From: a virus
Lineage: Duplodnaviria > Caudoviricetes
Reading direction: 5' to 3' (one strand)
DNA length: 64,000 bases
IMG/VR virus record: IMGVR_UViG_3300031555_003522
Location: 143,862 to 207,861 of that record
The notes beneath the pieces are model-generated. The model was not told the origin of the DNA. It saw only the letters and a program-made list of their open reading frames with translations, and searched no databases. The position numbers and the translations under genes were made by a program. Below are positions 20,725 through 23,700 of the stretch, piece by piece; the first letter of the stretch is position 1, and the number at the start of each line of letters is the position of its first letter.

Positions 20725-23700
20725 CGTTTATTACTTTATATCACTATAAAGACTAGACTATATCTTCATCTTAAATACTATTACCATATTTGAGATGCTC
20801 CCCATTTCGAACTCTATCAAGAGCCCTACTCTACTCGGTTATTCTCATAGATCTTTCTTCTATGATATCCTTTCGATAGTCGTTGAACCTTCCTCTATTG
20901 AGGCTTGGCTGCTGATTGTCTCAATGAGAGTTCCCAGCAATTAAAGGAGATTCTACATAATGTCACCACTATGCAGCCCTATTCTTAAGGAATTCGTTCT
21001 TCATTGTAATTAGGCATGCACGCTCATTATCAGAGTGAGCATTTGTGCAGTATCTATCCATAAAATCATTCAAAAGAATACCTACACAATATGCAAGAAT
21101 ATTTATAATGGAATATCTTAATCCATCCTGAGGTATAATTACCATTGGGTCAACTAATCTATCCATCTCAATCATATCATCATCAACAAAACTATATTCT
21201 GTAACCTTTCCAATTACAGGTTCTGTCTTTATTTCTCCATCATCGATAAACGTAGCAGCATCTACATTTTGTGTCTTAATCTTCATAGGAATCTCACAAC
21301 ACATTTGTCTTACATACTGATACCATCCATCAAATGATACAATTGCACTCGCTTTGTTCATATAGGATCGCAACTCCATACAGTTCTCTTATGAACTTCT
21401 ATATGTTTCCATATAGGCCAGACTATATCATCACCCTACTATGGGTGCCTCCCATTTCGATTTAAAAGGTCTTATTTGGACATCGCCTTACCCCATTATA
21501 AGCTTGGGCTCTACTCTACTAAGTTCATCTATAGATGCTTTTCGATAGTCGTTGAACGTTCCTCTGTGCGAGGATTCGCTGCTGATTGTCTTTTATAAAT
21601 TAATAAGAAGATTTTCCAGCAATTAGAGAGGTTATCGACGCATGTTTCCATGCAAAGGGACGTAAATATCTTCATCCGTGTCCTGAATAATACTGACAGA
21701 TCTGACTAGAGAATCCATCTTAGCCAATCTATCAATAATCTGCTTATTATAATATACATACTCATACAAGATATCTGTTAGAGCTTTAAGCGGCTCTATA
21801 ATATTCTCTGGAGGCTCATTAGGATCCATAAATGGAGCATCGAGACTCTGAAGTATGAATAGTATAGCTTGTGTGACAGGAGCGTTATCAATGAAATGAT
21901 ATAGATTATTCTTATAGAAGAGTCTATCGAGTTCATCTTGATTGAGCTTAGATAGAATTTCCCAAATTATATGCATTTCATCTTCACTAGGCACCCATCC
22001 ATATCCAGTACTAGAAAGTAACTGGAAGAAGGTTTCTTCAATAGAAGCATGAATAGTAATAATACCATTACTATTGAAATGATGCTCTTCTGTAAGCACC
22101 GTATGAATAAATTCAACGAGTTCATTCATGGAACTCATTGGTACATTATTATTTAAGAAAGATTCTAGGAATAGCGCGGCAGCACTATTGCAAGATCTAC
22201 CTTGAGTTGTAACACTGGAAGCAGTATAAAGATTATAGAAAATACAAGAATACTGCCCAGTAGCTCCATAAACAATATATTCAAGTGGTTCATTACTCCA
22301 CCCAGTTCTCTTATGAACTTCTTTAGCTTTCACCAAAGTTTAGACTATATCTTCATCCATAAAGGATGTCCAGTACAGGATCTCATGATTTGAGACCTCT
22401 TAGTCGTTGAACCTTCCTATTTCTAGGCTCGGCTGCTGATTGCCTATTGTACCATCCTTCTACTATTTCCATTTAGGCAAGAAGGCTTTAAGGTGTCCCA
22501 GCAATTCTCTGGATTTAATCGATACCATTACTGGTAAAGTGGACCTTAGTTAATCCATTCATCTGGAGCTTTAAAAATACCATCATTTTCATGATGGGTT
22601 AGACTATATCTTCATTCATTTAAGAATGGTCTCTGTTTCGAGCATTAAGCCCTACGTCTTTCGACTAGTCGTTGAACGTTCCTCTAAACAAGGCTTCGCT
22701 GCTGATTGTCCAATCTCTATATTTTCAAACATTCACGATTACTCTTTCAAGTTGCGTTGTAGTTATAGAGCTCTAAGGAGTTTCCAGCAATTAAGAGACT
22801 TTAACGACACCAATGGATTTAATTTAGCGTCGATCTTACGCAAGTACCTCATATCGCTATGAGGGCTAGACTATATCTTCATCTATATCTCTATTACCAA
22901 GATATAGATGCTCCCCATTTCGAGTTCACTAGAACTCTACTCTACTCGGTTATTCTCATAGATCTTTCTTCTATGATATCCTTTCGATAGTCGTTGAACC
23001 TTTATAAATCAGAATCAGTAATACAGAATTTCATATTAGTTTTTTCTTTCACAACTATGGCTACAATCTGATATTCATCTCTGTATACTATTTCAAGATT
23101 AGAACCATCAGACTCTAATCTTATCACATTGATGCTTTTATTCAATGCCGCTTTCTTTATTTCTCGAATAGCTTTATTGAATTTTCGATTACCTTTCTCT
23201 GTAAAGTAAGATATAGTACCATGAAGTATATCAAAAGGTCTTTCTAAATATCTATCAAAATACCATGATAATCTAAATGCTTCATCTTCATCGAAGATAT
23301 CATCGAGACCAACAAGAATTCCAGTATGTGGTCTACTACACCCAGATTCATATTCATATCTATAATACACATATCTCACTTCCTTTCTGATTTATACTTG
23401 GCTGCTGATTGTCTCAGTGAGAGTTCCCAGCAATTAAAGGAGATTCTACATAATGTCACCACTATGCAGCCCTAAAATTAAGGAGTAGCTGAAGTAGATT
23501 ATATTTCTCAAAATCTTCAGATCCTTTAGGATACTTGAACATTTCTTTCTTCATAGCTTTTCTATCATTTATAAAGCCATCGATCATTCCATACAGTGGA
23601 TTAGGAACAGTTCCGTGTCTCTTAAACAATACACCATAGGAAGTTATAATAGGTTCTTTATCCATGATATAGTTTGCCATATAACTCAAGGTAGAGTTGA

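Follow-up and report, generated by a model that had tools for sequence, protein, structure and literature searches.

A conserved protein gene in the P6a loop of a group I intron that interrupts a jumbo-phage DNA polymerase gene

When a phage group I intron contains a protein-coding gene, the product is assumed, almost by definition, to be a homing endonuclease. I-TevI, the enzyme of the T4 td intron, is a 245-amino-acid (aa) GIY-YIG protein with a separate DNA-binding domain, and the I-Bth0305I/EDxHD and Vsr-like "fractured genes" families were reportedly placed later in the PD-(D/E)XK/Vsr nuclease superfamily. HNH-NUMOD endonucleases of the I-HmuI and I-BasI type occur in phage DNA polymerase introns (PMC11878797), and T4 SegB is a free-standing GIY-YIG homing endonuclease located inside a tRNA gene cluster (PMC2330249; PMC13096335). 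We describe here the group I intron pol-I1 from a 64,000-nucleotide (nt) stretch of DNA, hereafter the window, that forms the right-hand 64 kb of a 207,861-bp viral contig in IMG/VR (IMGVR_UViG_3300031555_003522), which is 84% complete. The P6a loop of this intron carries an open reading frame (ORF) whose predicted product is not recognisable as a member of any known homing endonuclease family.

The intron pol-I1 and the cassette in its P6a loop

The window derives from a jumbo phage with genes of the multisubunit RNA polymerase type, and DNA matches of the contig to AR9, PBS1 and other phages are short and at the level of introns only. On the minus strand, a gene for a divergent family-B DNA polymerase (PF20286 in relatives) is interrupted by five group I introns. 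Four of them pass the Rfam gathering score. The fifth, pol-I1, is seen as two RF00028 halves that flank the ORF, at 22847-23016 (36.6 bits) and 23273-23497 (22 bits), and both remain below the gathering score because a 401-nt loop splits the match. The group I core motifs AAUUGCUGG, AAUCAGCAGC, GUUCAACGACUA and GAUAUAGUC are all found in pol-I1.

The splice sites were fixed independently, by aligning the window to two sets of relatives: locus L002, from which I2-I4 are absent, and L042-45, whose polymerase genes are uninterrupted in motif B. The junction in pol-I1 is CTCCT^ ... G^TAAGAT, and L042-45 read across it uninterrupted as QLLLKIDANGFYG or QLLLKIDSNGFYG. Joining CTACTCCT to TAAGAT restores the reading QLLLKIDA..., which is also what the intron-less L042-45 encode and what L002 has downstream of its own I1. 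On sequence grounds, pol-I1 is a complete group I intron that is predicted to be functional. It is one of three back-to-back group I introns in motif B (window positions 22273-23480), which are separated by exons of 13 and 7 nt; alignment with L002 places the motif B junctions at QLLL/KIDA/NG/FYG.

A sequence-only reading of this DNA had held that pol-I1 carries an ORF where its twin, pol-I5, has a small P6 hairpin, and alignment of the two introns bears this out. Without the cassette, pol-I1 is 83% identical to pol-I5, and the P1-P5 segments differ only at 3 nt in the P1 loop and 1 nt in P5. The position of the cassette corresponds to GCCUCAAUAGAGG / CCUCAAUAGAGG in pol-I5. The same reading had described a perfect 12-bp stem with one arm abutting the ribosome-binding site and the other overlapping the last codons and stop; the arms are indeed complementary at 12 of 12 positions, with 370 nt between them (Table 1).

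A closing stem of at least 9 bp (9-14) is present at the same place in 8 of 10 ORF-bearing introns of other phages, where it is formed by five unrelated sequences; the two remaining introns have only 5-6 bp. Because the stem is kept in position with unrelated sequences, the P6a assignment is well supported by comparison. The Shine-Dalgarno site of pol-I1 is not sequestered by the stem, and such a site is found at similar spacing in every intronic homologue examined. Close homologues also retain the C-terminal residues DSDL. A promoter scan of the intron found sigma-70-like sites no more often than in shuffled sequences, and none was positioned to drive the ORF. The ORF, its closing stem and the Shine-Dalgarno site are, by prediction, a self-contained cargo cassette in the P6a loop.

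A mechanically called ORF on the minus strand (23002-23379) is open for 125 aa from a GTG at 23379, in agreement with the length first proposed. However, the real coding sequence most likely spans 23002-23370, because close homologues are 122 aa long and begin MYYRYEY, and because L002 has an in-frame ATG at the position of the window's GTG. The GTG at 23370 sits 8 nt after AGGAAGTGA (23384-23376). It is overlapped by an out-of-frame ATG at 23372 that opens a 42-aa frame (23244-23372) and that may lower or tune translation in the window's phage.

Table 1. Features of pol-I1, its cassette and the twin intron pol-I5 (positions in the window)
Feature	Position	Strand	Description and basis
Group I intron pol-I1	22839..23480	-	642 nt, interrupts motif B of the polymerase gene; from the Rfam halves, identity to I5 and the exon junction
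pol-I1 splice sites	23481; 22839	-	5' site after CTACTCCT (23481); 3' terminal G at 22839; from L002 and the intron-less L042-45
pol-I1 5' ribozyme half	23397..23480	-	P1-P5 and 5' strand of P6; ends ...AAUCAGCAGCCAAG
pol-I1 3' ribozyme half	22839..23002	-	P6', P7, P3', P8, P9; contains GGUUCAACGACUA and GAUAUAGUC
Exon 2, between I1 and I2	22826..22838	-	13 nt, UAAGAUCGACGCU, codes for K-I-D-A; from comparison with L002
P6a stem, 5' arm	23385..23396	-	UAUAAAUCAGAA; identical arm in L002, L050 and L051
P6a stem, 3' arm	23003..23014	-	UUCUGAUUUAUA; covers codons S-D-L and two bases of the stop
Shine-Dalgarno site	23376..23384	-	AGGAAGUGA, abuts the 5' arm of the stem; read from sequence
Cargo coding sequence	23002..23370	-	most likely 122 aa, GTG start at 23370; from close homologues
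Twin intron pol-I5	20725..20987	-	no ORF; P6a is a 12-nt hairpin; RF00028 92.2 bits
pol-I5 exon junction			GAATTCCT^ATTCAAGCG

The protein family and its genomic settings

The ORF belongs to a family with 18 close homologues and 57 representative clusters at 50% identity, of which no description was found in the literature searched. The protein encoded in pol-I1 has the motifs YRYE, GILxGLD, FxxxLxxP, SYFTEKGNRKFxKAI and IxYxDEYQ(I/V). Five residues (F59, T60, G63, D101 and Q104) are invariant in a 60-sequence alignment, eight others (R7, Y8, G20, F41, L45, P48, F67 and Y99) are nearly so, and no His or Cys is conserved. Four copies that are 80-87% identical give a ratio of nonsynonymous to synonymous substitution rates (dN/dS) of 0.07-0.16 at dS of 0.7-1.0. 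Genomic contexts were taken from about 35 loci, and no decayed copy was seen among them. These patterns indicate that the ORF is a real gene under purifying selection. The conserved core of the protein is only ~105 aa and has no separate DNA-binding module. The family is net acidic (median isoelectric point, or pI, of 5.3), with a strongly basic central helix (median net charge of +5). As an argument against DNA binding, this acidity is weakened because the co-resident HNH proteins are also near-neutral (pI 6.5-7.7).

Searches of Pfam, PHROG, NCBIfam and PADLOC with the ORF and 60 members assigned no family and produced scattered, chance-level matches only. Pfam gave nothing at E ≤ 10 for the ORF and no HNH match at E ≤ 1 among the 60 members, one of which had a chance-level match to a PHROG HNH profile (E of 0.0046). 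The one weak theme to recur in the libraries was HAD-IIB phosphatases (MPGP and SPP, two members each; E of 0.006-0.02). SPP, T6PP and PMM were also the top rows in Foldseek, where they superposed poorly with a template-modeling (TM) score of ~0.2, and in the ESM Atlas one domain from a HAD hydrolase cluster (365 aa) matched with a TM of 0.72; we take the HAD theme as a lead only. The best match of a PDB-sequence profile search, the uncharacterised protein 4ycs, had an E of 0.04 and was not used.

An AlphaFold2 model built from the alignment is confident (pLDDT of 91.3, pTM of 0.81) and predicts a compact α/β fold in the order strand, helix, strand, helix and then three strands. Foldseek found no match in the PDB at E ≤ 0.001. 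The best VIA-align score over 48,161 representative chains was a Z of 3.4, and a second look gave 3.5, values at which a distant relationship is still possible. The top weak structural rows were ferredoxin-like ligand-binding domains (ACT, CutA, PII and RAM). Apart from the HAD hydrolase cluster, good structural matches were limited to uncharacterised phage and bacterial proteins, those in BFVD being uncharacterised phage proteins only, and a protein atlas limited to named clusters gave no usable match. The homodimer prediction score of 0.01 counts neither way. In the model, SYFT-x-x-G is placed where a strand passes into a helix and YxDxYQ falls on a hairpin, which hints at a possible pocket. 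The ORF product is thus modeled as a compact α/β protein of an uncharacterised phage family.

Known endonuclease classes were compared with the family individually. The sequence-only reading had seen no LAGLIDADG, GIY-YIG, HNH or His-Cys motif, and the library scans and the 60-sequence alignment agree. Neither an HNH (His-Me finger) Pfam match nor a conserved His or Cys is present in the ORF and 60 members, and the absence of conserved His and Cys applies equally to the His-Cys box. There is no match to the GIY-YIG family PF01541; a YRY-x11-GIL stretch is superficially alike, without the second Tyr and the downstream Arg, and no chain with the GIY-YIG fold appears at Z of at least 2, scores so low that they do not exclude a distant relationship. 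LAGLIDADG is represented by no motif and no Pfam match, and the predicted order of strands and helices differs from the α-β-β-α-β-β-α core of that class. For the PD-(D/E)XK, EDxHD and Vsr-like nucleases, D101 is invariant but is not followed by (D/E)xK, and again no such chain appears at Z of at least 2. Foldseek and VIA-align listed no homing endonuclease, PD-(D/E)XK, GIY-YIG, HNH, Tad, Acb or other sponge fold. The predicted structure matched no solved fold, whether of a homing endonuclease or of another protein, the best Z being 3.5.

Family members occur in three settings, namely intron P6a loops, phage tRNA arrays and large multi-domain phage proteins, so that homologues are both intronic and non-intronic. 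Intronic ORFs always lie between AAUC-GCAGC(C/U)AAG and GUUCAACGACUA. Counted across relatives, they are found at four of the five DNA polymerase intron sites: I1 (window and L002), I2 (L050, in a chimeric intron), I3 (L022) and I5 (L051). Others reside in introns of an RNA polymerase subunit gene (L004 and L012), a topoisomerase II large subunit gene (L010), a gyrase-B-like gene (L035) and an unidentified gene (L032). Six further members read into P7 and end ...STT..., and they are taken to be intronic because their C-termini translate GUUCAACGACU.

The proteins most similar to that of the window are not confined to its site: L050 (I2) and L051 (I5) are 85-87% identical to it and L002 (I1) is 80% identical. 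The exon flanks of I1 and I5 share TCCT only. The L050 intron (L050:2330-2898) is a chimera at pol I2, with a 5' half that is I2-like (108 of 139 positions identical), whereas its cassette and 3' side are of the I1 type; identity to I1 and I5 extends over the P6a cassette and the next 29 nt. This arrangement suggests that introns have recombined with each other across their conserved cores.

In sister phages, the P6a slot is also used by HNH_3/NUMOD4 genes of 240-349 aa. These are located at I5 in L002 (L002:5556-6580), at I3 in L046 and L051 (L046:3981-5030; L051:236-1400) and in the gyrase-B-like gene of L035 (L035:514-1680); the 266-aa L051 ORF is a putative HNH gene, judged by its length, which equals that of the L046 ORF. 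The I5 site is therefore occupied in relatives by the family ORF (L051) or by an HNH gene (L002), and the same polymerase sites may be empty (L042-45), ORF-less, HNH-bearing or family-ORF-bearing across relatives.

In tRNA arrays, the order tRNA-His, ORF, tRNA-Met is found in L028-31 and L040, and a similar order in L041, L013 and LC76P1, with gaps of ~10-25 nt between the ORF and the flanking tRNAs. No group I core motif was found in the few kb fetched around these members. In one metagenomic array, the tRNA-His gene and the family ORF are separated directly by what ARAGORN reports as a tRNA-like gene whose anticodon has four bases, gtgg (L031:1891-1963). Lysinibacillus phage LC76P1, which carries a family member, has no RF00028 match in its 165-kb genome.

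The domain is also a part of four large proteins. It occupies residues 3-101 of the 1592-aa P0072 (E of 4.7e-11), where it is followed by three P-loop kinase-like domains, NUDIX and GNAT. It is found at residues 266-372 of an 828-aa L026 ORF (E of 2.1e-10) that has NUDIX at 653-721, at residues 485-578 of a 986-aa L024 ORF (E of 1.6e-11) and at residues 292-398 of the 656-aa P0057 (E of 4e-13). P0057, encoded within the locus L011:1-7971 of a 72.9-kb contig, has two ADP-ribosyltransferase (ART)-like H-x-T...GL stretches by eye. Nearby genes encode an ADP-ribosyltransferase-toxin-like protein, a metallophosphatase and Tpt1 (RNA 2'-phosphotransferase, in a split gene), a NAD and RNA-repair theme. 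On a 259-kb phage contig, the ORF-bearing intron is followed 2.4 kb downstream by a microbial PARG-like gene (L004:6762-7682). A context tree is poorly resolved, 12 of its 20 forks being open; in it, intron and tRNA-array members are interleaved, and three of the fusions form a divergent clade with LC76P1.

Possible roles of the protein

The reading that we favour, if tentatively, is that the ORF encodes a trans-acting accessory or conflict protein, for which introns and tRNA arrays are neutral landing pads. We infer its expression, its action in trans and its binding target. The protein would be a binding or small catalytic module, and its target would be a host factor, the end of an RNA or some ligand derived from a nucleotide. 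The intron would be a vehicle only, with the P6a stem shielding the ribozyme core from the insert, and the gene, lacking its own promoter, would be read from pre-mRNA or from the excised intron. The cassette would move between introns by recombination in the flanking core sequences CAGCAGCCAAG and GGUUCAACGACUA. Inserts in intron loops and tRNA arrays would be free of cost to the phage, since processing removes the RNA around them. We doubt that the protein is a site-specific DNase for its own insertion site.

We favour this passenger gene because four large phage proteins contain the domain as a module, and because P6a loops already carry plain non-endonuclease cargo in the form of tRNA-Leu. 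Further reasons are that libraries, residues and fold give no nuclease signature, that proteins 80-87% identical sit at the unrelated sites I1, I2 and I5, that dN/dS is very low with no decayed copy in the loci surveyed, and that the LC76P1 member resides in a genome without a detectable intron. Polyvalent proteins of this kind are described as injected conflict effectors (PMC7824862). It is possible, although we consider it less likely than not, that group I introns of these gut jumbo phages convey accessory genes in their P6a loops and not homing endonucleases alone. The domain, with a new fold, would then serve in conflict or anti-defence, perhaps by binding a nucleotide signal or damaged RNA ends, and would shuttle among intron loops, tRNA arrays and injected polyvalent proteins.

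Several observations weigh against a passenger. To our knowledge, nearly all conserved ORFs that have been studied in phage group I intron loops are homing endonucleases. The family ORF is in the exact slot of the HNH/NUMOD4 genes, with I3 holding a family ORF in L022 and an HNH gene in L046, and I5 showing the same alternation between L051 and L002. Classic homing patterns are seen in the patchy presence and in the kinds of gene that are interrupted (DNA polymerase, RNA polymerase, topoisomerase II/gyrase B), and the location in tRNA arrays has an endonuclease precedent in T4 SegB (PMC2330249). Three of the four fusions belong to the divergent sub-clade, so they are less telling for the intronic sub-family, and the strongly basic central helix would suit nucleic-acid binding.

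The ORF could accordingly encode a new compact homing-type DNA endonuclease or nickase, which would cut intron-less or ORF-less polymerase alleles in co-infection so that repair copies the element, with the tRNA-array copies acting like SegB. The distribution is that of a homing endonuclease, in that members are found in a self-splicing element or free-standing at variable sites and are patchy among relatives: ORF-bearing introns occupy at least six sites in DNA polymerase, RNA polymerase subunit and topoisomerase II/gyrase B genes, the slot is common to HNH/NUMOD4 genes at the same sites in sister phages, and those sites can be empty, ORF-less or ORF-bearing. The SegB-like habitat, the purifying selection and the basic helix point the same way, and new endonuclease families have earlier been found from genomic context alone (PMC2677866). 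However, the small core lacks a DNA-binding module, the conserved His/Cys and the HNH, GIY-YIG, LAGLIDADG or (D/E)xK motifs are missing, near-identical proteins are found at sites with unrelated target sequences, and the domain occurs mid-chain in NUDIX, kinase and GNAT polyproteins. No nuclease fold was listed at Z of at least 2, which does not exclude a distant one, and the net acidity is a weak point, given the near-neutral HNH proteins. On balance, we consider an endonuclease unlikely, but a contender to be taken seriously. An RNA-binding cofactor (maturase or chaperone) that helps group I ribozymes fold and tRNA precursors mature is improbable. Such a role would fit the three introns of motif B with their very short exons, the fact that two of the three habitats are structured, processed RNAs, the basic helix, and the RNA-repair-type neighbours and fusion partners (Tpt1, metallophosphatase, PNK-like kinases); in L004 and L012, moreover, the ORF-bearing intron adjoins a tRNA-Leu-bearing intron in the same gene. 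A maturase would be expected only with introns, whereas many members are in tRNA arrays, and the role is unlikely because LC76P1 carries a member without a detectable intron. In addition, the window's genome has 13 RF00028 matches against one ORF copy, relatives have the same introns without the ORF, the family is net acidic, and no known RNA-binding fold or motif was found.

Two other explanations are far less probable. The protein could be a minimal ART-like (NAD-using) domain that modifies a host target or, most speculatively, places a recombination-triggering DNA lesion. Its strand-helix order, with YR in strand 1, S/T in strand 2 followed by a helix N-terminus, and D/Q at the start of strand 5, resembles R-S-E when read by eye; Tpt1 C-lobe (9 entries, Z of 2.0-2.4), DarT1 (Z of 2.8) and MbcT (Z of 2.7) are weak recurring rows, and the neighbours and fusions have an ADP-ribose theme (ADPrib_exo_Tox, Tpt1, PARG, NUDIX). 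All of these Z scores are nevertheless at noise level, hhalign comparisons with the ART-like stretch of P0057 and with the Tpt1 fragment gave probabilities below 2%, only one of 60 members touches the Enterotoxin_a profile (E of 0.15), and no known ART domain is nearly as small, which together make this reading very improbable. A decaying remnant or untranslated ORF with no present function is scarcely credible. The GTG start and the overlapping out-of-frame ATG in the window's phage would fit such a relic, but the dN/dS values, the 57 clusters with invariant motifs, the Shine-Dalgarno site in every intronic copy examined and the confident model all speak for a functional gene. Of the three roles raised by the sequence-only reading, a new endonuclease, a maturase or a passenger gene, none is established; a passenger is favoured on indirect evidence, and a maturase is the weakest in view of LC76P1 and the tRNA-array members.

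Other intron cargo and comparison with known systems

Ten of the 13 RF00028 matches in the window's genome are above the cut-off. Canonical homing endonucleases are absent from the window's complete introns and present in the rest of the genome, where three canonical HNH/NUMOD4 genes lie beside intron matches (G000:C1 55914-56222, 106896-107198 and 143089-143361, of which the third ends shortly before the window begins). Outside the window, the same genome also has an intron whose P6a loop harbours a tRNA-Leu gene, flanked by the 5' strand of P6 and by P7 (G000:C1 54185-54766). This arrangement is conserved across divergent jumbo phages (L004:2779-3392, L006:478-1091 and L012:1148-1745). The anticodon is UAA in G000, L004 and L006 and UAG in L012, and a long stem closes the L004 loop. 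The tRNA-Leu introns of L004 and L012 are in the RNA polymerase subunit gene, just upstream of the intron with the family ORF. No phage precedent for an intron-borne tRNA was found in the literature searched. As judged from these predicted introns, P6a loops of this phage group hold endonuclease genes, a tRNA or a member of this family.

At many sites, the endonuclease slot is thus filled by a strongly conserved family without a nuclease signature or a relative of solved fold. Should the protein prove to be an endonuclease, it would represent a new catalytic family, smaller than any other known, which would matter for intron mobility and could offer a compact scaffold for DNA targeting. Should it prove otherwise, then together with tRNA-Leu it would mean that phage self-splicing introns can carry useful cargo, which would change how intron ORFs are to be annotated, and the domain would be a new candidate for phage-host conflict. 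In either case, the family comprises at least 57 clusters, is unnamed in the copies of Pfam, PHROG and NCBIfam searched, and deserves a name.

The T4 td intron with I-TevI resembles pol-I1 in its group IA2 core sequences, its stem-closed P6a-loop ORF with a ribosome-binding site of its own, and its location in an essential gene of nucleotide or DNA metabolism. In contrast to I-TevI, the protein described here has a core of ~105 aa, does not match the GIY-YIG profile and gave no fold match. The I-HmuI/I-BasI type of SPO1-like and Bastille-like Bacillus phages shares the host gene class, and HNH/NUMOD4 genes occupy the same loop and sites in sister phages, whereas the ORF product has no HNH/NUMOD match or conserved His/Cys and is half the size or less. 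The I-Bth0305I/EDxHD and Vsr-like "fractured genes" family offers a parallel in that candidacy arose from self-splicing location and patchy distribution (PMC2677866); the ORF model, however, shows no PD-(D/E)XK/Vsr relation at Z of at least 2, a level at which a distant relation is possible. Like SegB, family members are wedged between phage tRNA genes, although no sequence or fold relation to SegB was found and the family is not known to cleave DNA. The domain is not named in the searched part of the polyvalent-protein literature. As in polyvalent proteins (Iyer et al. 2017, cited in PMC7824862), it is a module among NUDIX, GNAT and P-loop kinase domains in proteins of 656-1592 aa on jumbo-phage contigs, whereas the window's copy is a stand-alone 122-aa protein inside an intron.

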